The notes beneath the pieces were generated by a model. The model ran no database searches. It was given only the letters and a program-made list of their open reading frames with translations, and was not told where the DNA came from. From Candidatus Nomurabacteria bacterium (lineage in GTDB: Bacteria; Patescibacteriota; Patescibacteriia; UBA1558; GWA2-36-10), in the NCBI GenBank assembly GCA_020632415.1, contig JACKFO010000002.1, positions 23,244 through 87,243 of the forward strand: a stretch of 64,000 bases of DNA, given 5' to 3'. Below, one piece after another: positions 6,105 through 64,000 of this stretch. Position 1 is the stretch's first letter, and each line of letters begins with the position of its first letter. The position numbers and the translations under genes were made by a program.

Positions 6105-6833
6105 ATGATTTTTAAAACAGAAGCTTTTGTTTTGCGCGCCATTCCTTGGCGAGAAGCTGATCGTCTTTATTATTTTTTTACTCCACACGAAGGAGTAATT
6201 ACCGGAGTAGTCAGGGCAGCTGCTAAATCTAGCAGTAAGTTAGCTGGACAGCTTTTGCCTTTTGCTAAAGTACAAATTATGATTGGCCGAGGAAAACTAG
6301 ATCATGTTGCGGGCACTAGTACGATTAAGGATTACCAAAATTTAAGAACGGATTTAAAAAATTTGTCATTAGCCGCTTCAATCGTGGAGTTATTTTTGGG
6401 AGAATTATCCAGCGGCGCCAAACAACAAGAGTTTGATTTATTAGAGGAAGTTTTTACTTTATTAAATGAAGAAAATTTAAAATCAGAGGATAAATTGATT
6501 TTGGTCAGAACTTTTTTGTGGAAATTTTTATCCCTAAGTGGTTGGCAGCCACAGTTAGATGCTTGTTTTGTCTGTCAGAAAAGTATTTCGCAAGGAGCGT
6601 ATTTGCCAGGACGTGGTTTAGTTTGTCATCAGCACAATTTGGCTGGGGCTTTGTTAATTAGTCCAGATTTGCTACAATTTTTAAGAGAGATCTTAAAAAC
6701 ATCATTAAAAGATAGTTTGGATTTAAAATTAAATCCAGAATTAAATAAAGAATGGTTGCAGGCTTCTCAGGCTTATTATCAAGAAGTCTATGATCGACCA
6801 TCAAGAGCATTAAAATTATTTGTTTATGGCTAA
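6105..6833 (+). CDS. recO: DNA repair protein RecO
   Basis: N-terminal OB fold plus C-terminal Cys4 zinc finger (CFVCQ...CHQH); ATG immediately after the ileS stop. Confidence 0.8.
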   Translation: MIFKTEAFVLRAIPWREADRLYYFFTPHEGVITGVVRAAAKSSSKLAGQLLPFAKVQIMIGRGKLDHVAGTSTIKDYQNLRTDLKNLSLAASIVELFLGELSSGAKQQEFDLLEEVFTLLNEENLKSEDKLILVRTFLWKFLSLSGWQPQLDACFVCQKSISQGAYLPGRGLVCHQHNLAGALLISPDLLQFLREILKTSLKDSLDLKLNPELNKEWLQASQAYYQEVYDRPSRALKLFVYG

Positions 6834-8625
6834 TGTAAGAAAGCGCAGCATTGATTCAGTAAAACGTTCAAGTTTGCGAAAACAATCATATGAAGCGCCG
6901 GCAATCAAAAGAAAAACTTCAAGCAAAAGACCAGTGCCTCAAGAATATCGCACTTTCAAAAAAGCGCCCAAAGGCAGAGGCGGCTTGGTTTTTTTCTTGT
7001 TTTTGTTATTTATCGCCGCGATTTCTGGATTTTGGTATTGGAATAACAATGGCTCGACTAATATTACAGATAGTTTAAAACTAGAAATTACTGGACCAGA
7101 AAAAATTGTTTCTGGAGACGAAGTGACTTATCTGGTTGAATACACAAATTTGGATACTGTTGCTTTGACAGCTATGGAGCTTAGTGTTTATTGGCCAGCG
7201 GGATTTTATTTTGATGAGGCTTCTCTTGAGCCAGAAAATGCTAATGCCAAAACTTGGCTCCTTGATGATTTGCCTGCCGGACAAAAAGCTAGCTTGGAAA
7301 TCAAAGGGCAATTGGTTGGTAAAAAAGGTGAAGAACATGATGCAATTTTTAGCTTAGATTATCAGCCAGCAAATTTTCATTCAGATTTTGTAGCTAAGCA
7401 AACAGTAACTACTAAAATTACTGATCAAAAGATTGAGCTTGAAGTTCAAGGACTTGAAAAAACCCTGGTTGATACAGAGCAAGAGATAAAAATAGTTTAT
7501 CGTAATTTGAGTGAAGAAGTTTTGACTGATTTATATTTAGATGTTTTATATCCAGATGATTGGCAGATCGAAAGTGTTGAGCCAGCTAAAGAAGGTCAGT
7601 ACTGGGTCAGTAGCTTAGAGCCAGAAGAAGAAAAAGAAATCGTGCTCAAAGGATATTTTTCCATTGATAGTCGCGCAGATCAGTTGTTAGTGGCTGAAGT
7701 TGGAAATATGTTTGACAATGATTTTCGTCGCTTGATGCGAACTGAGCATCCGATTGTAGTTGTTAATCCACAATTTGATTTAAATTTGACAATCAATGGT
7801 CAAAAGGGTGATCAGCAAGCTAATTGGGGAGATGTTTTGCGTTATCAATTGGAAGTGACCAATGCCAGTGATAGCGATATTGCTGACGTTGAAGTAACTG
7901 CTTTGCTTGCTGGAAAACTTTTGAACTGGGATAGTTTGGATAGTGTCGGACAATATTTAGAAGAACGTATTGTTTGGACCAACGAAGAAGATCAAGGCTT
8001 AGCTTCTTGGTCAGCTGGTGAAAAGAAAATCTTTACTTGGGAAGTAAAGATAGTTTCTAGTCCTCAGCCAGAAAGAAATTTAGAAAATATTATTAAGATT
8101 AATATCGCCGGTCTTAATGACTGGGAGCAATTGGTGACAGTTTCCAAGTTGACAGTGGGCGAAAGTTTGACTTTTAACAATGGAATTTATTGGCATTTGG
8201 GCGGCAGACGTGTTGGTAGTGGTTTGTTGCCACCAAGAGTCGGTGAAGAAACTCAATATTTAGTTGTTTGGTCTTTACCACAATCAACTGGTAATTTTGC
8301 TGATGTAAAAGTAGAAACTGTTTTGCCACCAAATGTTGATTTTGTGGATCAGGCAGAAATTCAAGAAGGAACCTTGTCTTTTGATGAAAGTTCTAGATCA
8401 TTGACTTGGTCTTTGAATGATTTTCAAGACGTTTTGTTACCAGTGACTGCTTCTTTTATGATCTCAATCACTCCAGACAATGAAGACAAAGGACAGACTT
8501 TGACTTTATTAAATCCAGTGACAGTTAGCGCCAGTGGCACTGAAGATGTGGTAGTAAGAAGTAAAATTTTGAAAACTTCAGACGTTGTAGCAGAGAGTTC
8601 TGAGCCAATTGGTATTGTGCAATAA
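6826..8625 (+). CDS. membrane-anchored surface protein with ~110-aa tandem beta-sandwich (DUF11/CARDB-like) repeats
   Basis: Basic cytoplasmic tail, one TM helix, then repeated units (EITGPEKIVSGDEVTYLVEYTN... / ...NLTINGQKGDQQANWGDVLRYQLEVTN...). The track start at 6820 is a TTG; ATG at 6826 (MANVRK) is more likely. Confidence 0.6.
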   Translation: MANVRKRSIDSVKRSSLRKQSYEAPAIKRKTSSKRPVPQEYRTFKKAPKGRGGLVFFLFLLFIAAISGFWYWNNNGSTNITDSLKLEITGPEKIVSGDEVTYLVEYTNLDTVALTAMELSVYWPAGFYFDEASLEPENANAKTWLLDDLPAGQKASLEIKGQLVGKKGEEHDAIFSLDYQPANFHSDFVAKQTVTTKITDQKIELEVQGLEKTLVDTEQEIKIVYRNLSEEVLTDLYLDVLYPDDWQIESVEPAKEGQYWVSSLEPEEEKEIVLKGYFSIDSRADQLLVAEVGNMFDNDFRRLMRTEHPIVVVNPQFDLNLTINGQKGDQQANWGDVLRYQLEVTNASDSDIADVEVTALLAGKLLNWDSLDSVGQYLEERIVWTNEEDQGLASWSAGEKKIFTWEVKIVSSPQPERNLENIIKINIAGLNDWEQLVTVSKLTVGESLTFNNGIYWHLGGRRVGSGLLPPRVGEETQYLVVWSLPQSTGNFADVKVETVLPPNVDFVDQAEIQEGTLSFDESSRSLTWSLNDFQDVLLPVTASFMISITPDNEDKGQTLTLLNPVTVSASGTEDVVVRSKILKTSDVVAESSEPIGIVQ

Positions 8626-13307: not shown

Positions 13308-13398
13308 CACGAGAACTTGTCAAAAGTCCGTTCTTTGACATCAGAGTTCAAAATCAAATTGAATACAACTGGGAAACCAAGAGAGGGAGAGAAATCTC

Positions 13399-14772
13399 AT
13401 GAAGAAGCTCAGTTCGCTCTGCATCGCCTTGCTGGCGATCGTTTTTGCTCTGCGTCCGGCTTCGGCCGAAACCTTCACCGTTCCGGACGATGGGACGATT
13501 CAGGATGGTGTGGATGTCACCGGCAGCGGTGATGATATCTACATCAGTCCGGGCGTGTATACCGAAACGGTGTACTTTGATGCGGACACCGTCAGCATCC
13601 ACGGCTTGGAGGCCGACCTGACCACCATCCGCAACGGCACTTTCGTCTTCAACGGCGGATCCACAATGGAAACCGTGCTTCATGATCTCGGCTTCGATGG
13701 TCCCGATGGCGCGGCGATCAGCCTTTTCAATGGCTCTGGCGTGACGGTTCAGAACGTGTTGATACGTGACAAAGAGGGAACGGCCGCGATTTTCGTGGGC
13801 AGCAATTCACATCTCGTCCTCAGCACGGTCTGGGCCTGGAACAATTCCAACGGTGCTCTGCAGGGCTATGCCACGGCCAGTAGCAATTTCGGTCAAATCG
13901 AGATCTACAACGCTCGTTTCGAAGGTAACGCCTTAAACGGTATTCCGACGATGATTCCGCAGATCGAGAATGGCCTTCTGACCTATCGACCCTACCAAAG
14001 CGATGATCGCAACCAGAACTTTGGTGGCGGCATCTACTTGCCTCTGGGCGGCGGTCGAGTCTCGATCTGGCGCAGTCTCTTGGCCAACAATGACGTGAAT
14101 TTCTTGGGCGGCGCTATCAGTGGCGGCAACGATGCCAACATTGATTCAACGATCGTCGATCTGGATCTCTGCACCATTTTCGGCAACGATGCTGGGCAGA
14201 ATGGATCGTTTTTCTATGGTCGCAATGGGAAAATTCGACTGAACATTTCCAATAGCCTGTTCGTCGACAACGGCATCAACGCCTTCGTCGGCAATGTCAG
14301 CTTCGAGGGGCACAACGTGGCCTGGCCGAACAACTACGACATTCCTGGCCTGATCGTCGAGGATCCTCTTTTCTGCGATCCGGATGGTCGCAATTTTCAG
14401 CTCGGCTACAGCTCCTTCTGCCTCCCCGAAAACAACCAGTGGGGGGAGCAGATCGGCGCCTTCGGCGCCGGTGAATGCGATGGAGTCGGTGTCGAGGCGA
14501 TCCAACAGCCGATCAACTTCGGCCTGACAGCCCATCCCAATCCTTTCAATCCCACGACCACCATCAACTTCAATCTGCAGTCGGCCAACCACGTCTCGCT
14601 GATCATCTACGACCTGGAAGGTCGGCTGGTGGCCAATCTGCTCGATGGCATGCTCGGTTCTGGACAGCACAGCGTCAACTTCGACGCCAGCAAGCTGTCC
14701 AGCGGCAGTTACTTCGTCTACATGACCACCAACGACCAGCAGCAGGTGATGAAGTTGCTGCTGCTCAAGTAG
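13399..14772 (+). CDS. secreted beta-helix-like protein with T9SS (Por) C-terminal sorting domain
   Basis: Signal peptide (LLAIVFALRPASA); Gly/Asn-rich parallel beta-helix-like repeats; C-terminus ...PNPFNPTTTINFNL...IYDLEGRLV...SGSYFVYM...KLLLLK typical of the T9SS CTD; SD GGGAGAG. Confidence 0.7.
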   Translation: MKKLSSLCIALLAIVFALRPASAETFTVPDDGTIQDGVDVTGSGDDIYISPGVYTETVYFDADTVSIHGLEADLTTIRNGTFVFNGGSTMETVLHDLGFDGPDGAAISLFNGSGVTVQNVLIRDKEGTAAIFVGSNSHLVLSTVWAWNNSNGALQGYATASSNFGQIEIYNARFEGNALNGIPTMIPQIENGLLTYRPYQSDDRNQNFGGGIYLPLGGGRVSIWRSLLANNDVNFLGGAISGGNDANIDSTIVDLDLCTIFGNDAGQNGSFFYGRNGKIRLNISNSLFVDNGINAFVGNVSFEGHNVAWPNNYDIPGLIVEDPLFCDPDGRNFQLGYSSFCLPENNQWGEQIGAFGAGECDGVGVEAIQQPINFGLTAHPNPFNPTTTINFNLQSANHVSLIIYDLEGRLVANLLDGMLGSGQHSVNFDASKLSSGSYFVYMTTNDQQQVMKLLLLK

Positions 14773-14827
14773 ATCTCAATCACCCGAAGGGCGGGTGTTG
14801 ACTTTATCTCTATGGAAAGGAGTGAGC

Positions 14828-15340
14828 ATGAGGAAACTCATTGTTCCGCTGCTGGCAGTGTTCTTGCTGCTGGCAGGCTGCGACTGCGTTCAGGCTCGCG
14901 GACCGACCACCGTCGATGAGAGTACGGGTCTGGTCTGCGACAACATGGGCAACTCCTGCGACATCATGATCAGCGGCCTCGGCTACGACGAACTCGCCTG
15001 GGAGGTCGAGTTCTCCGGCGTGGACATCAGCGACAACTCCTTCGTGGCGTCCGATTCCAGTCGGGACCTGCTGATCCTGGCGGTTGACAGCGGCGTCAAC
15101 GAAGGCTGTTTCGAGATCAGCTTCTATCCGGTGCTGATGAATTCGACGATCACCGGCGAGGCCTTCTCGAGCGACAAGATGGACACGGCGACGGCATTCC
15201 TGGCCAACATCGGCGAGGGCATCAACGGCGAAAACGGAGGCCGGCAAGTCCTCAAGTGTCTGATCGACAGCCAGTTCGTCAACGGCTACATGATCTGCCG
15301 CACCGACAACCGCGACGGGACGATCAAGTCCGCCGCCTGA
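14828..15340 (+). CDS. lipoprotein (lipobox LLAGC), unknown function
   Basis: Signal peptide plus lipobox; SD GGAAAGGAG; high GC. The track start at 14795 is a likely upstream extension. Confidence 0.55.
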   Translation: MRKLIVPLLAVFLLLAGCDCVQARGPTTVDESTGLVCDNMGNSCDIMISGLGYDELAWEVEFSGVDISDNSFVASDSSRDLLILAVDSGVNEGCFEISFYPVLMNSTITGEAFSSDKMDTATAFLANIGEGINGENGGRQVLKCLIDSQFVNGYMICRTDNRDGTIKSAA

Positions 15341-15395
15341 CCCAGGCTGTGTGCTAGAGGCGTCTAGTGCACAGCCAGAACTCTGAATTCCGCAC

Positions 15396-15436
15396 CCCCG
15401 CATCCGAGCTTGACTTGGATGCGGGGTTCTTTTTTT
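15396..15436 (+). terminator. GC-rich rho-independent terminator closing the high-GC island
   Basis: ccccgcatcc-(11-nt loop)-ggatgcgggg followed by TTCTTTTTTT; an additional hairpin at 15346-15378. Confidence 0.7.
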
Positions 15437-15528
15437 ACACCGATTATTAGCTTTGGAGTCAATATTGCTAAATATACTGATATTAGTTATAATTTTAATG
15501 ATTTTTATAGATTAAAATATTCTGTTTT

Positions 15529-32549: not shown

Positions 32550-35500
32550 ATGTTTAAAAATCAAGAAAAAAAGAAAAAAAAGCTTAAGGAGCCTGTTTTT
32601 TTGTTATTTAAATTAAAAAAAAGTTTGATCTTTGGTTTAATTTTAGGTTTAATTTTTCAGACCTTTAGCCTTAATGCTCCTCAAGTACAAGCTGCCACTT
32701 TATTAAGCGATGATTTTACGGGTACAACTATTGATACCGCTAAGTGGGTAGAATATGATGCGGCAGGTAGCGGTGGAGAGGCTGGTAATATTCAGCAAAA
32801 TGATTCTTTATCAGTTACTAGTAGTAATAATGGAACCACAGCTCTTGTGTCAGTGGATAGTTTTTCTGCGGATGGTTTAGAAATTTCTTCTGTGATTACT
32901 ACAAGTAATGGTAAGTTCATTTTGGGATACGGAGATCGTGAGTGGTCATTGGCAGGACATAGAGGATATTTACTTTATAATTCTGGTTCTAATATTCTGG
33001 GTTTAGCTTGGAATAATAATGTATTAAAGCAAAATGTTGCTTGTGGCACGATGACCAGTGGAGCCAACTATAAAATGAAAATTATTCCTACTGGTTTTGA
33101 GGTCTATAAAAATGATGCTTTGCAATGTACCGTTACCCCACTTACTGCTGATTTGGTAGATGGTTATTCAATATTTTTAGAATCAAATGATGCGATTTCT
33201 TATTTTGATGATCTTTTAGTCGTTGGTACTGTCAGTGAGGAAGCAACTGTGCCGGCCGCTCCTACTATTGGTACGGCTATAGCTGGTGATACAGAAGCAA
33301 GTATAAGTTTTACTCCGGGATCAAATGGTGGTTCAGCAATTACGGGTTATACTGTGACTTCAAATCCAGGAGCCATTACAGCAACAGGTTCTGCTTCGCC
33401 GATTACAGTCACTGGTCTCACTAATGATACAGAATATACTTTTACAGTGACTGCTACTAACGCCATTGGCACTTCTGATCCTTCGGCTGCTTCTAATGCT
33501 GTGACGCCACACGTAACAGATATTTTTGACGAAGCAGCTTTGTGGCTCAAAGCAGATGCAATTACTGGCTTAAATGATGGCGATGCAGTTACTACTTGGG
33601 GAGATAGCTCTGTCTATGCTTTGGACGCAACACAATCAACAGTAGATTATAAACCAACTTATAAAACAAATATCATAAATTCTCAGCCGATAGTTAGATT
33701 TGACGGTATCAATGATTTATTGCTTACTCCTTCTACAGCCGCCGCTGCTGGTATCACGGTTTTTACGGTTGTGAAAAGTACAGATACGAGTTCTGGCTAT
33801 TTTGCTGCTTTTGGTGGTAATAATAATGCAATTATTACGGGTTTTAGTAATGCTTTATGGGAATATTATAGCAGCCCGAGAACTACTTTGGGCAATATAT
33901 CTACTTCTGAATTTCAAATTATCACCTCAAGAGTGGGCTCGAGTTTGACGAATCCAATTAGTTTGGGTGCAGATGCTGGTAGAGTCGCTCCTTGGGCAGG
34001 AGATGTGGCAGAATTTCTTGTATTCAAATCAGTTTTGTCAGATACTGACTATAATACCGTGTATGATTATTTAAATAATAAATATTTTTCAGCCGTCGAT
34101 CCAGTTGAGCCAGATGCGCCAAGCGAATTAGTAGCTACGCCAGCTAGTGAACAAATGTTGCTTTCTTGGACAGCACCGGCAAGTGATGGCGGAGCAACAA
34201 TTACAGATTATGTTGTAGAATACAAATTAAGTTCTGAGCCTACTACTTGGACTACTTTTGATGATGGTGTTTCTACTGAAACTACTGCTACGGTCACGGG
34301 GCTAACTAATAATTTGAGTTATGATTTTAGAGTGTCGGCAACTAATTCAGTAGGCACAGGTGCTGTTTCAGATACAGCAACGGAAACGCCAGCGCTCAGC
34401 GTACCCTCAGCACCTATTAGTTTGTCAGCTAGTGGTGGTAATAGTGATGCTACTCTTTCTTGGACAGCTCCCGCAAGCGATGGTGGAGCAGCGATTACAG
34501 ATTATGTTGTAGAATATAAACTAAGTTCTGAGCCTACTACTTGGACTACTTTTGACGATGGTGTTTCTACTGAAACTACTGCGACGGTTACGGGGCTAAC
34601 TAATAATTTGAGTTATGATTTTAGAGTGTCGGCAACTAATTCAGTAGGCACAGGTGCTGTTTCAGATACAGCTACTGCCACAGTAGAGTATGTTTTGTTA
34701 ATAGATGATTTTACTGGCACAACTATTGATTCTAGCAAATGGCTGGAGATCGATACTGCTGGCGACGGTGGTGATACTGGCAATGTCCAACAAAATGATT
34801 CTTTGTCGGTTGCTAACAGTGAATCTGGTAGCGACGAAGGGCTTAATGCTTTAGTTTCAGTAGATAGTTTTGATGATAACGATTTAGAGATTTCTGCCAA
34901 ACTGACCGCCGGAGGCCTGACCTTATTTGGCTATGGTGATCGTCAGTGGAATTTGGCTGGCAATAAAGCATATATAATTTATTTAAGTGGCGGCACCTTA
35001 ATGGGCTTGACTTGGCATGACGCTTCTTACGCCAATTCTAATACAAGCTGCGGTACTTATTCCGCTGGGGCAACTTATAAAATGACGATTATTTCCACTG
35101 GCTTTGAAGTTTATAAAAATGATGTGTTGCAGTGCACGGTTAGTCCGGGAGACGGTAATTTGGTAAATAATAAGCCAATATTTTTAGAGTCCAATGGCGC
35201 TACTGCTAGTACTTTTGATGATGTTTATGTAACTGGTACTTATACTGAGCCGACCGCACCAGAGGCTCCGACTATTGGTACTGCTACAGCGGACAATGCG
35301 CAAGCAACTATAACGTTTACCCCTGGTTCATCAGGAGGTTCTCCGATCACCAGCTACACTGTCAGCTCAGATCCAGGTGGCATTACTGCTACTGGTAGCT
35401 CTTCGCCTATTACAGTGACTGGGCTAACTAATGACACTGAATATACTTTTACAGTAACTGCTACTAATGCTATTGGTACCTCTGATCCGTCAGCGGCCTC

Positions 35501-38500
35501 AAATGCGGTTACTCCTACTGTGCCAACCGTTCCTGATCAAGTAACTGACTTGATAGCTTATGGGTATAATCAGCAGGCCTTACTTAGTTGGACTGCTCCA
35601 GACAATGGTGGCGCACCTATTTCAGACTATATAGTAGAGTACAAACCTTCATCAGGAAGCGAGTGGGGAATTTTTGATGATGGTACATCTGCAACTCTTA
35701 AAGCGATCGTTACTGGTTTGGAAAACGATATTCAATATGATTTGAGAGTTTCAGCAGTCAATAGTGGTGGCGCTGGTCTGGCTTCTGATCTTGCCACTGC
35801 CACTCCTAGGGCTTTAACAGAATTGGTAGTTGTCATTAACGGTGAAAGTAATTCTGGTGGACAAGCTCATAATAGCGAGGCAACAGAAGAAGAGCTGTCT
35901 CCTACAGAAGAAGTGCAAATATTAAATAATACATCTTTTGTTTTTGAAGATTTAGACATTGGAACTAATAATAATATTGATCATTGTTGTTGGTTGAATT
36001 CAGCGACACAACATGGTTTAGAATTAGAATTAGCTAGTTCCACAAAGGCTAATAATTTTCCAGATAATCCTCAAATTCATTTGATCAAAACTGGCCAAGG
36101 TGGTTCACGTCTTGCTCAGTGGAATGTTGGCGGTACATATTGGACTAAATTTTTAGAAAGAGTAAATGCCGCTAAAACACAATTATCCGCCAATCCCCAA
36201 TGGATAACGTGGATTAGTATAGGTATTAATGACTATTTGGCCGGGACAACGGTTTCGACTTTTAAGACAGAGTTGATTGCTCATATTAATAAAATAAAAG
36301 ATGAATTACCCGGAACCATAGTCATCTTAACTCAATTTCAAGCAATGAGCGCTAACTCTGGGTACCCAACATATAATGTGGTCATGGACGAAATAGCGGC
36401 TTCTGAAAATAATGTTTTTGTTGTCGATTCTACAGGAGCTGCTTTAGACGATGGTAATCATTGGAGTTATTCTGGGCTAAAAGTCGTTGCCGATAGAATG
36501 GTTACGATCACAAACACCCAACTAGGCCTGATCTACCCGGGAGTACCTACTGACCTTAGTGTGAATCCTGGCGCTACTTCTGCCGATCTAACATGGACTG
36601 CTCCAATAGCAAATGGTGGAGAAACTATCACAGATTATCTTATTGAATACAAAACTTCAGCAGAAAGTTCTTGGACTACTTTTTCTGATGGCACTTCTAC
36701 TGACACCACTGCCACTGTCACTGGTTTAGAAGATAGTACAGATTATAATTTTAGGGTTTCAACAGTAAATAGTAATGGAGCAGGAAATCCTTCTTTAACA
36801 GATGCTACTACTACCGATGGCACAGCCCCAGTAAACTCTAGTGTCACTGCTACTCCGACAGATAATTCAGCTACTATCACTTGGACTACAGATGAAGCAG
36901 GATCAAGTATTGTAGATCATGGATTAAATTCTAGTTATGGATCTTCTACTTCAGAGACTGATACTTCTCCTAGAGTCACAGATCATAGTGTCACTCTTTC
37001 CAATCTTCTCTCTTGTACCACTTACCATTACAGAGTCAGATCAAAAGATCTTGCTCAAAACCAAGGTACTTCTTCAGACTCTACTTTCATGACCACAGGA
37101 TGTACTGGAGATGCAGAAGTAGAACAGACTACCAATGACTCTGTTGCCACTTCTACTGGTGCTACAATTAATTTAAATTCAGGCACAGCCAATCTTACTT
37201 TAGATATTCCAGCAGGTTTTGATGAAGATGCTGCAAGTGATGTCGAATTCCAAGTCAATCAATTAACGACTAATACTTTGCTTTTAACTACAGGTAGCCC
37301 TAGTAGCAGAAGCGTTATTGGTTCGCATACTTATGACCTTTCAGCTTTTAGTGACGCTAACACAGCCTTAACTAATTTTGATCAAGCATTAACTCTCACC
37401 TTTACTTATCTAGATAGTGAAGTAGAGGGAATGGATGAATCAAGTCTAGTCATTTACTACTGGGATGGTGATTCTTGGGAAACACTAGATAACTGTTCAG
37501 TTAACACTACAGCCAACACTGTCTCTTGCACCACTACTCACTTTACAACCTTTGCTTTATTTGGGTCAGCTGCCGCAGAAGAATCAGCTGAAGAAGATGT
37601 ATCTGCTGGAGGCGGAGGAATGGCTATAATCCCTTCTCAAGGAGAAGGACAAGCAGACATTCATATTGGCATGCACCAAACAAAGGCAGGAGTAATCTTA
37701 GATAGTCAAAGCATTAATCTTTTAATGTACATTAATTCAGAGTTAGACTTTCAATTAAAAAATACAAACTTTAACAAAAAATTAATCATCAAAGATCTAA
37801 ACATGTTAAGCTCTGAAGCAGAAATAGAGCTTGCTAACCAAATACTAAAATTAAAGCCAGGACAGTCAGCGCTACTAGATCTTAACCACAACCAAATAGA
37901 TGATCTTAAATTAACTTTTAACACTTTACTTAACAATCGTTTAGATTTAACCTTAACATTCTTAACCTCTAGTGATCTCATTAATTTTGCCAATTATAAT
38001 CTTTTAGTTAAAAGATCAGACGATCCAGCAGTTTATTTGATTGAAAGTGGTCAAAAAAGACTTATTCCAAGCGAAAGTGTTTTCTTAAGTTATGGCTTTC
38101 AATGGTCGGATATTGAAATAGATGATGATCTAGAGCAGTATCCTACAGGAGAGGTACTTACTTATCCAGAACATAACTTTCCAGACGGAACTTTAGTTAA
38201 AGAAAAAAACAAACCACAAGTCTATTTATTGGAAGATCATCAAAAAAGATATATTACTAGCGAACAAATCTTCTTAAGCCATAACTTCAAATGGTCAGAT
38301 ATTATTGAAGTAGATACTCTAAGTTCTTATCCTATTGGGCAAGACCTCAGTATTAAGCAACAAAATAATCTCAATATTACTAGAAGTTTAAACTTAGGTA
38401 TGACCGGAGAAGATGTCAGACAATTACAAACATTACTTGCTCAAGACAAAACAGTGTACCCAGAAGGCAAAATAACCGGATACTTTGGACCTCTTACCGA

Positions 38501-38609
38501 ACAAGCTATTCAAAGATTCCAGCTTAAATACCAGATAGTTAACTCAGCGCAAGAGCAGGGCTATGGAGTGTTTGGACCAAAGACTAGAGCTAAAATTAAT
38601 TCCTTATAA
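32550..38609 (+). CDS. giant (2019 aa) multidomain cell-surface protein: 2x LamG-like, several FN3 repeats, SGNH/SASA-type esterase-like domain, C-terminal PG_binding_1 domain
   Basis: N-terminal signal/anchor; two LamG-like modules (LLSDDFTGTTIDTAKW... / LLIDDFTGTTIDSSKW...); FN3 repeats (SWTAP...YDFRVSATN); SGNH blocks GESNSGG / GINDY / DDGNHW (nt ~35826-36510); C-terminal PG-binding repeat (nt ~38391-38606). Confidence 0.8.
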   Translation: MFKNQEKKKKKLKEPVFLLFKLKKSLIFGLILGLIFQTFSLNAPQVQAATLLSDDFTGTTIDTAKWVEYDAAGSGGEAGNIQQNDSLSVTSSNNGTTALVSVDSFSADGLEISSVITTSNGKFILGYGDREWSLAGHRGYLLYNSGSNILGLAWNNNVLKQNVACGTMTSGANYKMKIIPTGFEVYKNDALQCTVTPLTADLVDGYSIFLESNDAISYFDDLLVVGTVSEEATVPAAPTIGTAIAGDTEASISFTPGSNGGSAITGYTVTSNPGAITATGSASPITVTGLTNDTEYTFTVTATNAIGTSDPSAASNAVTPHVTDIFDEAALWLKADAITGLNDGDAVTTWGDSSVYALDATQSTVDYKPTYKTNIINSQPIVRFDGINDLLLTPSTAAAAGITVFTVVKSTDTSSGYFAAFGGNNNAIITGFSNALWEYYSSPRTTLGNISTSEFQIITSRVGSSLTNPISLGADAGRVAPWAGDVAEFLVFKSVLSDTDYNTVYDYLNNKYFSAVDPVEPDAPSELVATPASEQMLLSWTAPASDGGATITDYVVEYKLSSEPTTWTTFDDGVSTETTATVTGLTNNLSYDFRVSATNSVGTGAVSDTATETPALSVPSAPISLSASGGNSDATLSWTAPASDGGAAITDYVVEYKLSSEPTTWTTFDDGVSTETTATVTGLTNNLSYDFRVSATNSVGTGAVSDTATATVEYVLLIDDFTGTTIDSSKWLEIDTAGDGGDTGNVQQNDSLSVANSESGSDEGLNALVSVDSFDDNDLEISAKLTAGGLTLFGYGDRQWNLAGNKAYIIYLSGGTLMGLTWHDASYANSNTSCGTYSAGATYKMTIISTGFEVYKNDVLQCTVSPGDGNLVNNKPIFLESNGATASTFDDVYVTGTYTEPTAPEAPTIGTATADNAQATITFTPGSSGGSPITSYTVSSDPGGITATGSSSPITVTGLTNDTEYTFTVTATNAIGTSDPSAASNAVTPTVPTVPDQVTDLIAYGYNQQALLSWTAPDNGGAPISDYIVEYKPSSGSEWGIFDDGTSATLKAIVTGLENDIQYDLRVSAVNSGGAGLASDLATATPRALTELVVVINGESNSGGQAHNSEATEEELSPTEEVQILNNTSFVFEDLDIGTNNNIDHCCWLNSATQHGLELELASSTKANNFPDNPQIHLIKTGQGGSRLAQWNVGGTYWTKFLERVNAAKTQLSANPQWITWISIGINDYLAGTTVSTFKTELIAHINKIKDELPGTIVILTQFQAMSANSGYPTYNVVMDEIAASENNVFVVDSTGAALDDGNHWSYSGLKVVADRMVTITNTQLGLIYPGVPTDLSVNPGATSADLTWTAPIANGGETITDYLIEYKTSAESSWTTFSDGTSTDTTATVTGLEDSTDYNFRVSTVNSNGAGNPSLTDATTTDGTAPVNSSVTATPTDNSATITWTTDEAGSSIVDHGLNSSYGSSTSETDTSPRVTDHSVTLSNLLSCTTYHYRVRSKDLAQNQGTSSDSTFMTTGCTGDAEVEQTTNDSVATSTGATINLNSGTANLTLDIPAGFDEDAASDVEFQVNQLTTNTLLLTTGSPSSRSVIGSHTYDLSAFSDANTALTNFDQALTLTFTYLDSEVEGMDESSLVIYYWDGDSWETLDNCSVNTTANTVSCTTTHFTTFALFGSAAAEESAEEDVSAGGGGMAIIPSQGEGQADIHIGMHQTKAGVILDSQSINLLMYINSELDFQLKNTNFNKKLIIKDLNMLSSEAEIELANQILKLKPGQSALLDLNHNQIDDLKLTFNTLLNNRLDLTLTFLTSSDLINFANYNLLVKRSDDPAVYLIESGQKRLIPSESVFLSYGFQWSDIEIDDDLEQYPTGEVLTYPEHNFPDGTLVKEKNKPQVYLLEDHQKRYITSEQIFLSHNFKWSDIIEVDTLSSYPIGQDLSIKQQNNLNITRSLNLGMTGEDVRQLQTLLAQDKTVYPEGKITGYFGPLTEQAIQRFQLKYQIVNSAQEQGYGVFGPKTRAKINSL
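32697..33510 (+). repeat. LamG-like+FN3 module, copy 1 of an intragenic duplication
   Basis: Co-linear protein similarity to the copy at 34695-35535 (same LamG-like order; FN3 ending ...TEYTFTVTATNAIGTSDPSAASNAVTP in both); DNA diverged. Confidence 0.7.
34164..34690 (+). repeat. two tandem ~294-bp FN3-encoding repeats, near-identical at DNA level
   Basis: 34199-34388 vs 34493-34682 differ at only a handful of positions (mostly synonymous wobble changes). Confidence 0.8.
34695..35535 (+). repeat. LamG-like+FN3 module, copy 2
   Basis: See copy 1. Confidence 0.7.
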
Positions 38610-58405: not shown

Positions 58406-58551
58406 CATTTTTTCAGTTAAATTTTAGTCCCAGCAAGCAAATGCTTGTTGGGATTGACTTTTTGCAAAAAATTTGTCATTATAATAGAAGAATAAAGTCT
58501 GAGATTTTATTCTAAGAATAATTTAGATAATACAGAAAGAGAGGTGCTAAT

Positions 58552-58794
58552 ATGCTAGAAGTTAAGAAAAAAGACAATGAGTCTTTTGAGAGTTTGATCC
58601 GAAGATTTACCAAGAAAACCATTCAAAGTGGTAAGATTTTGCAAGCGAAAAAAGTACGTTTTCATACTGGCAAAAGTTCAAGACGTGAACAAAAAGAAAC
58701 TGCTTTACGTCGCATTGACATGACCGATAAGATTGACTACTTAAAACGCGTTGGCAAATTAGATGATTTCTTTAATCGTCGTTATAATAAATAG
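58552..58794 (+). CDS. rpsU: 30S ribosomal protein S21
   Basis: Basic 80-aa protein with the S21 pattern (...RRFTKK...KVRFHTGKSSRREQKE...); SD GAGAGGTG. Confidence 0.8.
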   Translation: MLEVKKKDNESFESLIRRFTKKTIQSGKILQAKKVRFHTGKSSRREQKETALRRIDMTDKIDYLKRVGKLDDFFNRRYNK

Positions 58795-58849: not shown

Positions 58850-59293
58850 ATGGAATTATTAGAAAAAATTGAGCAAGATTTTAAAGAAGCGCTTAGAACT
58901 AAACAAGAGTTAAAATTGTCGGTTTTGAGAATGTTAAAAACTTCTTTGAAAAATCAAGCCATTGCTGATAAAAAACCAGAGACAGAAATGTCAGAACAGG
59001 ATATTTTTTTAGTTTTAAAAAGAGAGCTTAAAAAACGTAATGATGCTGTAGCCTCTTTTGAACAAGGAAATCGTCCAGAACTTGCCGCTCAAGAAAGGCA
59101 AGAGGCTGAAATTTTATCAGCTTATTTGCCAGCCGCAATGTCTGAAGAGGAGCTACAAAAAATAGTTGACGAAGTAATTGCTGGCGGTGTAGAAAATTTT
59201 GGCCAAGCAATGAAAGAAATAATGCAAAGAACTCAAGGCCAGGCTGACGGACAAGTTGTTCAAGCTTTGGTGAAAGCTAAACTAGCTAATTAG
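58850..59293 (+). CDS. GatB/YqeY domain protein
   Basis: YqeY-like helical domain; conserved rpsU-yqeY gene order. Confidence 0.75.
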   Translation: MELLEKIEQDFKEALRTKQELKLSVLRMLKTSLKNQAIADKKPETEMSEQDIFLVLKRELKKRNDAVASFEQGNRPELAAQERQEAEILSAYLPAAMSEEELQKIVDEVIAGGVENFGQAMKEIMQRTQGQADGQVVQALVKAKLAN

Positions 59294-59319: not shown

Positions 59320-60915
59320 ATGCTAACAAAAAGAAAGATAACTGTTTTTCTAATTATTTTAACAGCAGTTATTTTTTTGTTGCCAGATTTAGTCTCGGCT
59401 CAAACCGTCAGTAATTTTGGTGTTAATGATTTAGTTGATACTGGCTTAGGTACTAGAGACATTAGAGAAACAATTGCTTTGATTATCAATGTTATCCTTG
59501 GTTTCTTAGGAATTTTGGCAACTCTAATTATAATTTACGCTGGTTGGACCTGGATGACTTCTCAGGGTGAGGCTGATAAGATTGAAAAAGCTAAAAAAAC
59601 CATAGTCAGCGCAGTGATTGGTCTGGTAATTATTTTAGCTTCTTATGGAATTGCTCGTTTTATTTTAAAACAAATTTCTGACGCTACTGGCTATGATGGC
59701 CCAGGAAGTGGCGGCGGCTATGTTGGTGGAGTTGGTATTGGTGGTGGAATAATCGAGAGTCATTATCCAGCTAGAAACGCCACCGATGTTCCTCGCAATA
59801 CTAATATCTATATTACTTTTAAAGAGCCAATGAATCTTGATGATTTAACGACTGCTGTTGATTGTGATTTTGATTTGTGTGCCAAAGTAGATAATTTAAT
59901 CCTTACTGATCGGACAAATAGCACTGTTTTTGATAATACAAAGTTAAAAGTAATAGTCAGCGCTGATCATAAGGTTTTTGCCTTTAATCCTTATGACACA
60001 GATGCAGGCTTACATCTAGGAAACGCTAATGGTGAGACAGAATATAATTTTGCTTTAAGTAATAATATCCACAAAGAAAACGGGGACTTAGCCTTTGGTT
60101 TAAACGGTTATGATTGGGATTTCACAATTAGCAATGAAATAGACTTGACTCCACCAACAGTGACTTCAGTTATTCCGGTAGCAAGCTCTGTTAATCCTCG
60201 TAATACTGTAGTTCAAGTTAATTTTTCAGAAGCAGTTAATCCAATGCTCGCTTCTGGTGTTTATCCGGATTTTACTAATTTGACAACTAAAAATAGCACA
60301 GCAACAATCATTAGCGGTCAATATTTGATTTCTAATCAATATCAGACTGTAGAATTTTTGACCAATGATTTATGTGGAACAAATTCTTGTGGCGGTGATG
60401 TTTATTGTTTGCCAGCTAATGAAAGTTTGACTTCAGAAGTGACTGACTTAATCAAAGATATGGCTGATAATCAGCTTGATGGAAATGGCGATGGAATAGC
60501 TGGTGGAAATTATATTTGGTCTTTTTCGACTAATGATACGATTGATTTGTCACCTCCAGAAATTAGCTCAATGCAAAGTGTTTCTGATGTTGATCTATCT
60601 GCTCCAGTTCAAGTAAGTTTTAATAAGAATCTTTTGACTTCCTCGGTTAATTCTGAGCATGTTAAATTAGTCAAAACTCCAGCTACGGCGATAAATTATT
60701 GGTTAAACGTCGTTTCTGGAAAAGCGATTAGAATTTCTCATGATAAATTTGATTCTTTGACTCAATATAAACCAACTTTGTTATCTGGCATTCAAGATGT
60801 CTATCAGAATTGTTGGTACCCTTGCGCTTGTGATGACCCAACCGGGCATTCTTGTGCTTGTGATACTGACTTTAGTTTGGAGTGCGCTTCTGGCTTGCAT
60901 TGTGAAGAAAATTAA
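59320..60915 (+). CDS. secreted/membrane protein with N-terminal TrbC/VirB2-like pilin domain and Cys-rich C-terminal extracellular region
   Basis: Signal peptide; two hydrophobic helices split by the short polar loop GWTWMTSQGEADKIEKAKK; Gly-rich linker; paralogous to the next gene. Confidence 0.55.
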   Translation: MLTKRKITVFLIILTAVIFLLPDLVSAQTVSNFGVNDLVDTGLGTRDIRETIALIINVILGFLGILATLIIIYAGWTWMTSQGEADKIEKAKKTIVSAVIGLVIILASYGIARFILKQISDATGYDGPGSGGGYVGGVGIGGGIIESHYPARNATDVPRNTNIYITFKEPMNLDDLTTAVDCDFDLCAKVDNLILTDRTNSTVFDNTKLKVIVSADHKVFAFNPYDTDAGLHLGNANGETEYNFALSNNIHKENGDLAFGLNGYDWDFTISNEIDLTPPTVTSVIPVASSVNPRNTVVQVNFSEAVNPMLASGVYPDFTNLTTKNSTATIISGQYLISNQYQTVEFLTNDLCGTNSCGGDVYCLPANESLTSEVTDLIKDMADNQLDGNGDGIAGGNYIWSFSTNDTIDLSPPEISSMQSVSDVDLSAPVQVSFNKNLLTSSVNSEHVKLVKTPATAINYWLNVVSGKAIRISHDKFDSLTQYKPTLLSGIQDVYQNCWYPCACDDPTGHSCACDTDFSLECASGLHCEEN

Positions 60916-60952
60916 TTTTGATAAATAAAAAATAAAAAGATAATCTAAAAAA

Positions 60953-63900
60953 ATGTTGAAAAAATTACTAGCCACATTTTTACCGCTTAGCATCATCTTC
61001 TTTTGGCGAGCAGAACAAGTTTTTGCTCAAGCCACTGATGGTTTTGGGGTTAATGATTTAGTTAATTCCAATTTAGGGACCAGAGACGTTGTTGGCATCG
61101 TCAATAGCTTAATTAACATCTTCTTGGGTTTCTTGGGGATTATTGCAGTAATTTTGATTATTTACGGTGGCTGGCTCTGGATGACTTCTCAAGGAAGCGC
61201 AGAGCAAATTCAAAAAGCAAAGTTGTTGATCACTAGCGCAGTCATTGGTTTGATCATTATCATGTCTTCTTATTTGATTGCTCGTTTTGTAATTTCTAAG
61301 ATTGTTGACGCAACAGGAGCCGGCGGGGGTGAAGGTGGCTCAGTGGTGATTATTCCACCACCAGTAACTATTCCGACCTGCCCTGAACCGATGGACGGAG
61401 ATGAGGTTAAAATTTGTAAAGTCAGGCCAGATGCTGATAGCGCGCCAGTTGGACAGTACATTACGATTGAAGGTTGGCATTTTGATGCTTATGGAGCTAA
61501 TAGCGCAGTAAAATTTGATAGTTTTTCAGCGGATTTAGTTTCTTGTGGCGGTATTGTTCGTTGGCAAGAAATTGATCCGGTCCATTATCCGGGATATTTT
61601 AGAGTTAAGGCAATTGTTCCGAATATTGCTTTGGGTGATTATAAAATAAATGTTTTTAGCAACGATGGTTGGAATGGTTCTTACCCAGAAGGCCCAGTAG
61701 ATTTTTTTGAAGTTGTTGCTGGAACGCCTGGTCCAGGAATCGCTTGTCTGGTGCCAAACGTTCAAGAACGTGGTTTAGCTATAGATATTCAAGGAATTGG
61801 TTTTTCTTCTGCTGGTACGATTACAATGACTGGTTGGGACGGTAACAATCAAGTTGATCTTGATTTTGATGATTTTGATTCCTGGTCAGACACTTTGATT
61901 AATAATGCGATTATTCCAATTTCTGCTTTATCAAGTGACCTGACAGTGACAGTGAGTGGTTTGACTTCAGGCCCAGAGTGGCTTCAAGTTTATTGTGGAG
62001 ATGCGAGTTTTTGTGCCTCTGGCTGTTGCGCTGCTAATTCTTGTGTTGATGCTAGCGCTTGCTTCACTGCCGCGATTCTTGAAGAAGGTGGTCCAATTAT
62101 TGATCGTATTTCACCAGAGCAAGGTGCTGAAGGAAATATTATTACTGTTTATGGTCGTAACTTTGGCGATAATCCTGGCTCAGTAGTTTTTGAAAACAAT
62201 GTCGGCGGAGAAGTTTCCGGCCTTAATCCAGCAGATGTTAACGCAGAATGTACGCAATATTGGAGCGATGAAATGATCGTTGTCGTTGTACCGGATAACC
62301 TTAGAGATTCAGAGGCAAAAGTTTGGGTTAGAGATCAAGATGGAAATGATAGTAATTTTAAATTTTTTGATGACAGTTTTGGATCTTTGCCAAGTCTTTG
62401 TCGTTTAGAGCCTTTGTCTGGTTCTTTTGAGGATTTAATCACTTTATACGGCATAAAATTCAATGTTGGAGACAAAGCTTCTTTTGGTGGCGTCTTAGAT
62501 CACGATACAGTAATCTTAAGCGACGAAAAAGCCGAGACTAAAGTACCAAATTTAGAAGCTGGAGAGCTTGCGCTTGTTTTGCAAACAGCAAGCGGTGATA
62601 AGGGCAATGCCTTGCCATTTACAGCAGAAGATCAAGCAGGGGGCGATCCGGTGATTAATCAAATTAGTCCAGACAATGGTCCAAAAGGACAATATTTAAC
62701 TATCTTTGGCGCTAATTTCGGTAATGCCATCGGAACAGTTACTTTCAAAAGAGGTGGCGTAGATACTCTGGGAGACTTTAGTTTTCCAGCACAATGTTCT
62801 GACTCTTATTGGAGTAACTCTAGCATTGTTGTTAAAGTGCCAAGTAGTTTGTCGGCAGCAAATGACTATCAGATAGTTGTCAAAAGAAGTAGTGATGGAA
62901 AAATTAGTAACCAAAAGCAATTTGCTGTTGTTTTAGGAACTGCCGGTCCTGGCTTATGTTCATTGCAGCCAGACAATGGTCCGGCTAACGATTCTTTTGC
63001 GATTAATTTAGCAGGAGATAATTTTGGCAACTCCAGTGATGTTGTTAGATTTTTTGATAATCAAACAGCAAATATTAATACTTGGGAAAATCAATATATT
63101 AATGCTCGCGTTCCGCTTAATGCTCAGACTGGTCCGGTAGTAGTTGAGAATGATGGAGTAGTAAGTAATGCTTTAAATTTTGAAGTTGGCTCTTGTAGTG
63201 TTGATAGTGACTGCGGAGCAGGCTATGAATGTTGTTTTCAGGGTACGGGAAATTATTGTGCTTTAGCTGGCTCTTGTCCAGGAGCGCAAAGTTGTGAGTA
63301 TTCATGGACTTTGACGACTGTTGCTGATCCTTTTGGTCTTAAAAAAACTTATCAATGTGAAAATAATTTGCAATCGCCATCTCCTTGGCCTGACGCTTTG
63401 GACGGAGAAGAGTCTCGGTCAGCTTATTTGGATGCAAATGTCGCAGCTTTGTTTACTAGAGATGTTTTGGATAGTGATATCAACTCGACAAATGTCAGAG
63501 TGCAGGCCTGTAATTTTGGTGGTGAATTTGACCCATCTGCCTGTTCTGGTCTGCTTGTTGGTGATTTGTCAATCATTAATCATGATAGCGATCAAGAAGG
63601 TTTTGTTTTTAATCCAGCTGCCAATCTGGATCCTAATCGTTGGTATGTTGTAAAGTTAGGAGTTTTTCATAGTCAGCTTGGCTTTGACATTTGGGATGGT
63701 AATAGTTTTGATTGGCATTTTAGAACACAGGATACAACTTGTCAGGTAACAAGCATTCAAGTCACACCAACGCTTAGTCCGCAAGCTGATCTTTACCTTG
63801 GTGATAGTAAATTTTTCTATGCTACACCACAGGGATCAAATTGTAATGTTTGTGGATCAAATTATAATTGGGAAGATTGGGAGTTGCCAGTGCCAATTGA

Positions 63901-64000
63901 TAATTCTCGAGCAAATATTATTTTTCAAGAAACCGCGAATGTAAATATTTCTCGAGCGCTTTTAGAAGGTCTGCAGGTTACTGAAAATTCTCCAGTGCCG
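60953..64000 (+). CDS. large paralogous pilin-domain surface protein (5' partial; continues past window end) with IPT/TIG-like repeats
   Basis: N-terminus AQATDGFGVNDLV...GGWLWMTSQGSAEQIQKAK...SYLIARF is homologous to 59320; an uninterrupted ORF of >1000 codons to the window edge; repeated ISP(E/D)xGxxGxxxTxxGxNFG units. Confidence 0.6.
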   Translation, partial: MLKKLLATFLPLSIIFFWRAEQVFAQATDGFGVNDLVNSNLGTRDVVGIVNSLINIFLGFLGIIAVILIIYGGWLWMTSQGSAEQIQKAKLLITSAVIGLIIIMSSYLIARFVISKIVDATGAGGGEGGSVVIIPPPVTIPTCPEPMDGDEVKICKVRPDADSAPVGQYITIEGWHFDAYGANSAVKFDSFSADLVSCGGIVRWQEIDPVHYPGYFRVKAIVPNIALGDYKINVFSNDGWNGSYPEGPVDFFEVVAGTPGPGIACLVPNVQERGLAIDIQGIGFSSAGTITMTGWDGNNQVDLDFDDFDSWSDTLINNAIIPISALSSDLTVTVSGLTSGPEWLQVYCGDASFCASGCCAANSCVDASACFTAAILEEGGPIIDRISPEQGAEGNIITVYGRNFGDNPGSVVFENNVGGEVSGLNPADVNAECTQYWSDEMIVVVVPDNLRDSEAKVWVRDQDGNDSNFKFFDDSFGSLPSLCRLEPLSGSFEDLITLYGIKFNVGDKASFGGVLDHDTVILSDEKAETKVPNLEAGELALVLQTASGDKGNALPFTAEDQAGGDPVINQISPDNGPKGQYLTIFGANFGNAIGTVTFKRGGVDTLGDFSFPAQCSDSYWSNSSIVVKVPSSLSAANDYQIVVKRSSDGKISNQKQFAVVLGTAGPGLCSLQPDNGPANDSFAINLAGDNFGNSSDVVRFFDNQTANINTWENQYINARVPLNAQTGPVVVENDGVVSNALNFEVGSCSVDSDCGAGYECCFQGTGNYCALAGSCPGAQSCEYSWTLTTVADPFGLKKTYQCENNLQSPSPWPDALDGEESRSAYLDANVAALFTRDVLDSDINSTNVRVQACNFGGEFDPSACSGLLVGDLSIINHDSDQEGFVFNPAANLDPNRWYVVKLGVFHSQLGFDIWDGNSFDWHFRTQDTTCQVTSIQVTPTLSPQADLYLGDSKFFYATPQGSNCNVCGSNYNWEDWELPVPIDNSRANIIFQETANVNISRALLEGLQVTENSPVP

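Follow-up and report, generated by a model that had tools for sequence, protein, structure and literature searches.

Why do two large and otherwise dissimilar surface proteins begin with the same pilin-like module? The question is raised by two adjacent open reading frames (ORFs) on the forward strand, here called S and G, at the 3' end of a 64,000-nucleotide stretch of a Candidatus Nomurabacteria genome (assembly GCA_020632415.1, contig JACKFO010000002.1, positions 23,244 to 87,243; we refer to the whole stretch as the window). S is 531 residues long, and G, whose start codon lies 37 nt past the S stop codon, is still open at base 64000. Looking up the exact S protein led us to a public contig, L001, that is identical to the window across the whole 14,681-nt overlap and runs on downstream (window coordinate = L001 coordinate + 49319). 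This contig completes G as a 2520-residue protein (L001 11634-19196), of which the window holds the first 1015 codons. An initial annotation of the window had described a shared N-terminal TrbC/VirB2-like pilin domain and proposed that the two genes belong to a diversifying adhesin family. Our analysis supports the pilin and not the diversification: S and G are a widespread, ancient and uncharacterized variant of the type IV secretion system (T4SS) pilin of the Candidate Phyla Radiation (CPR), which databases annotate generically.

Over their first 119 residues, the two proteins form a gap-free alignment with 52% identity (blastp, E 4e-36), which bears out the description of tandem ORFs with a common N-terminal module. 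For the rest of S against the rest of G there is no alignment (next best E 1.6). At the DNA level, the module is the sole long direct repeat of the region (70-71% identity, 1627 nt spacing), and no third copy occurs in any frame of the window. An AlphaFold2 model of S, built from a 79-sequence alignment and having a mean predicted local distance difference test (pLDDT) score of 88.4, places helices at the signal peptide (residues 2-26) and at residues 48-79 and 85-122, the latter two forming a hairpin (pLDDT about 90) around a 5-residue polar loop. The hydropathy profile agrees with the model in showing a signal-peptide helix and two long hydrophobic helices, so this part of the initial description also held up.

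To which pilin family does the module belong? With the hidden Markov model (HMM) of PF18895 (T4SS_pilin), whose cut-off is 26.6 bits, S scores 31.5 bits over residues 46-115 and G scores 24.2 bits. With PF04956 (TrbC/VirB2; cut-off 27.9), S reaches 26.8 bits (E 6e-6, residues 3-114) and G has no match; S is thus above the PF18895 cut-off and just short of the PF04956 one. A model of pilin-like proteins from Mycoplasma integrative and conjugative elements (ICEs), NF045849, gives 36 bits for S (E 4e-9) and 34 bits for G (E 1e-8), with a cut-off of 40. Many orthologues carry precomputed PF04956 matches, those of G carry precomputed PF18895 matches, and G modules from 73 other genomes match an HMM of free pilins at E<=1e-19.

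When 5.8 billion proteins were queried with just the module, there were 359 matches, and the best 120 are all free Patescibacteria PF18895 pilins of 101-144 residues with 42-62% identity. Free pilins and the S family have the invariant columns L63/G64, G75, W78, G83, A91 and G101 in common. The free pilins end 1-10 residues past a nearly invariant Thr that closes helix 2, which is where the Gly-rich linker of S and G starts. Because these ends coincide with the fusion linker, S and G hold a whole pilin and not merely a pilin-like segment, with the signal peptide, the pre-helix motif LGT[KR]D, the first helix, the short loop and the second helix all in place. On this sequence evidence, we firmly assign the module to PF18895 as a complete Patescibacteria type IV secretion pilin, in line with the VirB2-type domain first proposed. 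Given its PF18895 and NF045849 matches and its free-pilin relatives, it is not an unrelated signal anchor, the alternative that the initial annotation had named.

What sets S and G apart from other members of the family is their size. Known PF18895 pilins stand alone at about 100-190 residues, whereas S and G add C-terminal ectodomains of 400 and 2400 residues, respectively. One genome that we checked (contigs L004 and L006) also has free pilins, one of which, from a four-gene array, is 64% identical to the G module of the same genome. The array (L006 8919-10813; pilins of 211, 106, 116 and 131 residues) adjoins polysaccharide-synthesis genes, not virB4. Its 211-residue pilin is a fusion to a Cys-rich tail of ~100 residues, so pilin fusions span a range of sizes.

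In the S model, the pre-helix segment and the linker are disordered, and the ectodomain comprises three Ig-like beta domains and a small Cys-rich knob. The initial annotation had placed a Cys-rich region of ~400 residues here, a description that we could not uphold: S has only 12 Cys (2.3%), 7 of them within the last 34 residues, and the region consists of three Big_5 domains. Within the knob, Q496, N497 and C498 are invariant, and C502 and C528 nearly so, in the 79-sequence alignment. G likewise has an Ig-like array, with at least three TIG domains, Big_5, fn3, Cys-rich repeats and a distinct distal domain. Its portion past the window end contains Big_5, fn3, Cys-rich CGDG repeats and a lineage-specific C-terminal segment of ~220 residues, so the array of more than 1000 residues that had been expected to run off the window is indeed there and includes more than IPT/TIG-like repeats. 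The complete divergence claimed past the module holds for sequence alignment and not at the level of the fold, since Big_5 occurs in both proteins. Foldseek comparison of the full S model with the PDB returned just generic Ig strings (LdtMt2 Ig domains, titin and SbsC) and no functional lead, and a phmmer search of the PDB with full-length G matched a designed fn3 alone.

Contrary to the diversification first suggested, S is a conserved orthologous family. A full-length search found at least 120 full-length relatives with 38-64% identity, nearly all of which have PF18895 plus Big_5. They measure 413-654 residues, and all but two partial entries are at least 514 residues long. The family alignment (79 sequences) contains 36 invariant columns, spread along the ectodomain. 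A profile search of 1.84 billion cluster representatives yielded 2043 clusters at E<=1e-30, with the top 150 all above 440 bits, and 367 genomes carry an S relative when each GTDB species is represented by one genome. From the GTDB species scan we kept 80 S loci, 73 of which had room downstream; in every one of these 73, S is followed by a same-strand ORF that opens with the pilin module. The two genes are directly adjacent in 71 loci and about 3 kb apart in 2. The second ORF encodes 907-3390 residues where complete, and the longest truncated ones exceed 3497. Judged by this distribution, S and G are a widespread, ancient and strictly conserved couple and not a fast-diversifying family.

The variation that does exist lies at the far end of G. 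Relatives of G (1392-4410 residues, nearly all with PF18895) have ectodomains of differing composition, which include Big_5, TIG, fn3, VWA, LamG, DUF4215 Cys repeats, C-type lectin and sialidase-type domains. The pilin module is common to 99 of 119 homologues and residues 400-2000 to about 37-111 (mostly 59-111), compared with 1-4 for the last ~220 residues. Comparing ectodomains across relatives thus shows a conserved S and, by these homologue counts, a G that consists of a conserved base and stalk with a lineage-specific distal domain, variable only at its distal ~220 residues. For the last 224 residues, a match to a DUF1554/endostatin-like domain reaches just 14 bits (E 0.047) and hints at such a fold. 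We considered a diversity-generating retroelement acting on the G C-terminus and rejected it, as the surroundings hold neither a template/variable repeat pair nor a reverse transcriptase.

Two side observations concern the loci in this collection. At L093 (9911-12424), a single stop-to-stop ORF of 838 residues has two pilin modules, at about residues 34 and 511. An S-type gene may have been duplicated or fused here, or our ORF calling may have joined two separate genes. Many public metagenome-assembled genomes with the S-G pair (L018, L019, L022 and others) are titled 'uncultured Gammaproteobacteria bacterium', and one 'Chlamydiae bacterium'. These titles are probably placeholders or reflect mis-binned taxonomy.

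The pilin modules of the two genes evolve in concert. Had a single ancient duplication given rise to S and G, the distance between an S module and a G module should not depend on whether the two share a genome, and yet it does. S-G module identity is 57.5% within genomes and 41.5% across genomes, and the same-genome value is the higher one in 71 of 72 genomes (Wilcoxon p 2.6e-13). The nearest neighbor of a module among close relatives is still usually of its own type (S-S in 59/72, G-G in 54/72). Identity at four-fold synonymous sites is also raised, at 46.9% within genomes compared with 35.3% in a GC-matched cross-genome control, and exceeds 70% in three genomes, which indicates that gene conversion contributes. 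The S and G modules are kept alike, which fits a shared partner or co-assembly.

The couple resides in a conserved gene order, lepB-hisS-rpsU-yqeY-S-G-...-ybeY (Table 1). Among 51 related loci with more than 9 kb of upstream sequence, 43-48 have the lepB-hisS-rpsU-yqeY block ahead of the pair and in the same orientation. Past hisS comes a strong terminator-like hairpin, and no such site was seen between rpsU, yqeY, S and G, where the gaps are 26 nt from yqeY to S and 37 nt from S to G. Co-transcription with the housekeeping genes is therefore likely, and we predict that rpsU-yqeY-S-G form one transcription unit that starts at the hisS hairpin. On the 3' side of G, single-pass membrane proteins of 288 and then 438 residues (L001 19222-21413; window-equivalent 68541-70732) precede ybeY. 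In both, the cytoplasmic N-terminus is of low complexity and rich in N, Q and D, and the part outside the membrane carries bacterial TSP3 Ca-binding repeats. TSP3 proteins occur downstream of G in many genomes, wherever the sequence reaches, and may form one functional unit with S and G. The idea of a mobile conjugative island was rejected, because the whole window consists of housekeeping genes and the synteny is ancient.

Table 1. Positions of S, G and their parts, and of the elements immediately upstream, in the window.
Feature	Position	Strand	Basis or remarks
Terminator-like hairpin, 15-bp stem, after hisS	58424-58482 (L001 9105-9163)	+	overlapped by promoter-like site before rpsU
rpsU (S21)	58552-58794	+	conserved gene 5' of the pair
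yqeY	58850-59293	+	conserved gene 5' of the pair
Gene S, pilin fused to Big_5 Ig-like domains, 531 aa	59320-60915	+	MCB9802462.1 'Ig-like domain-containing protein', Ca. Nomurabacteria
S signal peptide, aa 1-27, predicted cleavage VSA|Q	59320-59400	+	KRK n-region, hydrophobic core, AxA-type site; aligns with free-pilin signal peptides
S mature pilin module, aa 28-123	59401-59688	+	GVNDL..LGTRD motif, helix 48-79, loop SQGEA, helix 85-122
S Gly-rich flexible linker, aa 124-142	59689-59745	+	free-pilin alignment; pLDDT <50 at aa 124-135
S ectodomain, three Ig-like (Big_5) beta domains	59746-60804	+	Big_5 E 4.8e-20 over 3 stretches; model pLDDT >90
S C-terminal Cys-rich knob, aa 496-531, motif QNCWYPCxC...C	60805-60912	+	Cys placement, column conservation
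Gene G, 5' part	60953-64000	+	MCB9802463.1 'IPT/TIG domain-containing protein', Candidatus Nomurabacteria bacterium
G signal peptide, aa 1-25, predicted cleavage VFA|Q	60953-61027	+	sequence; alignment with S and free pilins
G mature pilin module, aa 26-121	61028-61315	+	52% identity to S; PF18895 24.2 bits at aa 44-113; NF045849 34.3 bits
G linker GAGGGEGG...PPP, then proximal stalk	61316-64000	+	at least 3 TIG/IPT, Cys-rich segment aa ~745-785, Big_5

How do these genes compare with the systems already described? S and G resemble the Patescibacteria PF18895 pilins, such as the Southlakia epibionticum array SEML1_0014-0019, in family, layout and invariant residues, and their modules are 45-62% identical to free pilins. 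Unlike those pilins, whose arrays lie in or near a virB4 cluster, they are a fixed pair in a housekeeping operon. From Patescibacteria, the literature reports VirB2-like pilins that are short, and arrays in which 2-11 pilin genes are grouped (PMC12102498, PMC10633639, PMC12857230). Tandem, sequence-divergent copies are typical of them, and proximity to virB4 is not universal, with a pilin gene near virB4 in 1135 of the 1948 assemblies having both (PMC12102498). In one Saccharibacterium, S. epibionticum, PF18895 pilins are essential for epibiotic growth (PMC10633639). Large adhesin-like proteins were noted in OD1 genomes in 2015 without a link to pilins (PMC4508563). The initial annotation had stated that pilin fusions to huge ectodomains are on record for CPR/Saccharibacteria-like genomes, but our literature search for pilin-ectodomain fusions or the S-G pair in CPR found no description, just short VirB2-like pilins and pilin arrays.

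With classical TrbC/VirB2 proteins (PF04956; Agrobacterium VirB2, RP4 TrbC), S and G share a signal peptide and a hydrophobic helical hairpin, but they differ in having a monoderm host, no adjoining virB1/virB3, a large C-terminal extension and a score below the cut-off. We used hhalign to compare a CPR pilin profile with one made from eight plasmid VirB2/TrbC genes, seven of which are annotated between a virB1-type (lytic transglycosylase) gene and virB3; the eighth is followed by virB3 and preceded by a gene with the unspecific label 'type IV secretion protein'. The profiles align over 54 co-linear columns through helix 1, the loop and helix 2 (P 3.6e-4, probability 37%), which lends weak support to a plausible homology of the CPR module to TrbC/VirB2. 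The best-scoring named small-pilin model is the Mbov_0395 family pilin-like conjugal transfer protein of Mycoplasma ICEs (NF045849), matched over its full 80 positions, although this model covers small ICE-borne proteins and S and G stay under its cut-off. The module also scores better on it (E about 4e-9) than on TrbC. The match fits the MPF_FATA ancestry reported for CPR T4SSs (PMC12102498). We take these comparisons to suggest that monoderm systems of the MPF_FATA type do have VirB2-like pilins, contrary to the usual statement.

Elsewhere, adhesins are carried by tip or minor subunits of pili, such as VirB5 of the T-pilus, CofB/TcpB of type IVb pili, PilY1 and the VWA tip adhesins of sortase pili. 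The analogy with S and G is functional only: a large binding domain is shown at the tip of a fiber, and some G orthologues carry VWA, but the pilin folds and assembly machines are unrelated. We know of no VirB2-type pilus with a subunit covalently fused to an adhesin. PrgB of pCF10 and the thioester-domain adhesin of pLS20 (PMC8092201) are, like S and G, large multi-domain Ig-like surface proteins, and they make the contact for a monoderm T4SS. They are, however, wall-anchored through LPXTG and encoded in the transfer operon, whereas S and G are pilin-anchored and chromosomal. A PrgB-type adhesin was not detected in Patescibacteria (PMC12102498).

The reading that we tentatively favor is that S and G are a pair of surface proteins built on complete PF18895 pilins, docked into T4SS pilus assembly and presenting a host-binding tip. 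Both proteins would be exported by Sec and lose their signal peptides at the predicted sites. The hydrophobic helices would then insert as a hairpin, with the short K-rich loop in the cytoplasm and the C-terminus and all fused parts outside. In VirB2 and TraA, removal of the signal peptide leaves the N- and C-terminus outside the membrane and the inter-helix loop in the cytoplasm, and the assembled fiber has the two termini on its outer surface; anything fused to the C-terminus of such a pilin would thus be displayed outside in either state. The Gly-rich linker would tether the ectodomain, in S a conserved stalk of three Ig domains with a Cys knob, and in G a long TIG/Big_5/fn3 stalk ending in the lineage-specific distal domain. 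Through the hairpin, S and G would dock into the assembly of free pilins, most plausibly as minor or tip subunits of a T4SS pilus or at its membrane base, and the pair could present a host-binding tip, by analogy with the adhesin role of VirB5, PrgB or type IV pilus tip pilins. We favor pilus assembly because the hairpin and the extracellular pre-helix motif are conserved like those of a working pilin and not like a generic anchor. The modularity of G, with its shared base and stalk and its lineage-specific end, which orthologues replace by VWA, LamG, C-type lectin or sialidase domains, is adhesin-like. We are more doubtful of a narrower version, in which S and G would be the tip/adaptor complex of a T4SS pilus and the first adhesin-fused VirB2-type pilins, S serving as the adaptor and G providing lineage-specific host recognition.

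Several results weigh against placing S and G in a pilus, and some of them favor the main rival, that the hairpin is merely a two-helix membrane anchor and that S and G are cell-body adhesins or wall-spanning stalks in need of neither pilus nor T4SS. G itself stays under the Pfam cut-off of PF18895. A profile of the module matched no chain among PDB sequences, even at E<=10, and Foldseek with a model of the module alone returned generic helical hairpins, such as ATP synthase subunit c, and no VirB2/TraA. Generic structural matches of the same kind are tabulated for the accepted, essential pilins of Southlakia epibionticum (Wang et al. 2023, supplementary table). No VirB4, VirB6 or VirD4 was found in the 64-kb window or within 10 kb in four annotated relatives. 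The surroundings of the pair are a core housekeeping block distant from T4SS genes, and the genes that come next encode the two conserved single-pass TSP3 membrane proteins. Appendages of 400-2400 residues would be sterically demanding in a tightly packed pilus, and to our knowledge no VirB2-type pilus has such subunits; a membrane anchor would avoid this cost. The existence of other pilin fusions of assorted sizes, such as the 211-residue pilin with a Cys-rich tail, is also in keeping with an anchor. The concerted evolution of the modules is partly gene conversion, so it is no proof of physical interaction, and the high conservation of the S ectodomain is more in keeping with a structural or adaptor role than with host-specific adhesion. 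Nevertheless, a mere anchor should keep its hydrophobicity and not its sequence, whereas the motifs LGT[KR]D, GFLG, GG[FW]xWMTSxG and AK are kept as in free pilins, and the S and G modules are held alike within genomes. Because the hairpin keeps all the free-pilin motifs and co-evolves between the two proteins, we propose that it is more than a passive anchor, and consider the anchor explanation somewhat unlikely.

Two further explanations seem less likely still. S and G could be pro-pilins or carriers, in which cleavage in the linker yields a normal mature pilin or sets the ectodomain free, to be secreted or bound to the wall. TrbC/VirB2 pro-pilins are known to be processed at the C-terminus, and the account is also favored by a junction that falls exactly at the C-termini of free pilins, past the nearly invariant Thr and ahead of a disordered Gly-rich linker, and by a signal-peptidase (S26) gene conserved four genes upstream. 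That gene, lepB, is most simply the housekeeping signal peptidase, however, and we identified no conserved cleavage motif. Making 2400 residues to discard or release would be costly for a genome of about 0.84 Mb, and cleavage would leave the conserved pairing unexplained, so we regard this account as improbable. It is also quite improbable that S and G are structural parts of an S-layer-like coat, as membrane-tethered Ig strings and not adhesins. The Foldseek matches do include the S-layer protein SbsC and a Nitrosopumilus S-layer, the S ectodomain is strongly conserved, and an LCP wall-polymer ligase lies in the neighborhood, as do ftsA and ftsZ in one relative. These fold matches are to generic Ig strings with low TM-scores (0.13-0.19), though, and a coat protein sits poorly with the lineage-specific distal domain of G and with the lectin or VWA-type binding domains of its orthologues.

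If the tip/adaptor version of the pilus reading is true, the complex would fill the place of the adhesin that has been reported as undetected in CPR T4SSs, and would hint at the way in which hosts are chosen by Parcubacteria-type CPR. The one genetically tractable Patescibacterium cannot live as an epibiont without its VirB2-like pilins and T4SS. For the Parcubacteria/ABY1 lineages, which are largely uncultivated, S and G are concrete candidates for a host-contact device. The variable distal domain of G could serve to predict or compare host range. More generally, the repertoire of VirB2-type pilins would be widened, either by very large C-terminal cargo or by a surface-display anchor in monoderm cells.

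Elsewhere in the window, scans for Rfam families and tRNAs found nothing. A sharp GC-rich island at 13350-15450 (50-60% GC, compared with about 35% elsewhere) contains an ORF at 13399-14772 (+) and overlapping ORFs at 14795-15340 (+) and 14810-15403 (-). The first of these encodes a 457-residue secreted protein whose C-terminus matches a type IX secretion sorting domain (Por_Secre_tail, E 6e-11). Bacteroidota-like diderms typically have this domain, and a monoderm CPR genome would not be expected to; horizontal acquisition and an assembly chimera are both possible. A second giant surface protein, of 2019 residues and without a pilin module, is encoded at 32550-38609 (+). It combines six fn3 domains with a SASA/GDSL-type sialate O-acetylesterase-like domain and, at the C-terminus, a peptidoglycan-binding domain. 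Between recO and tgt, at 6820-8625 (+), lies a gene for a 601-residue protein with DUF11 repeats of the surface-protein type.

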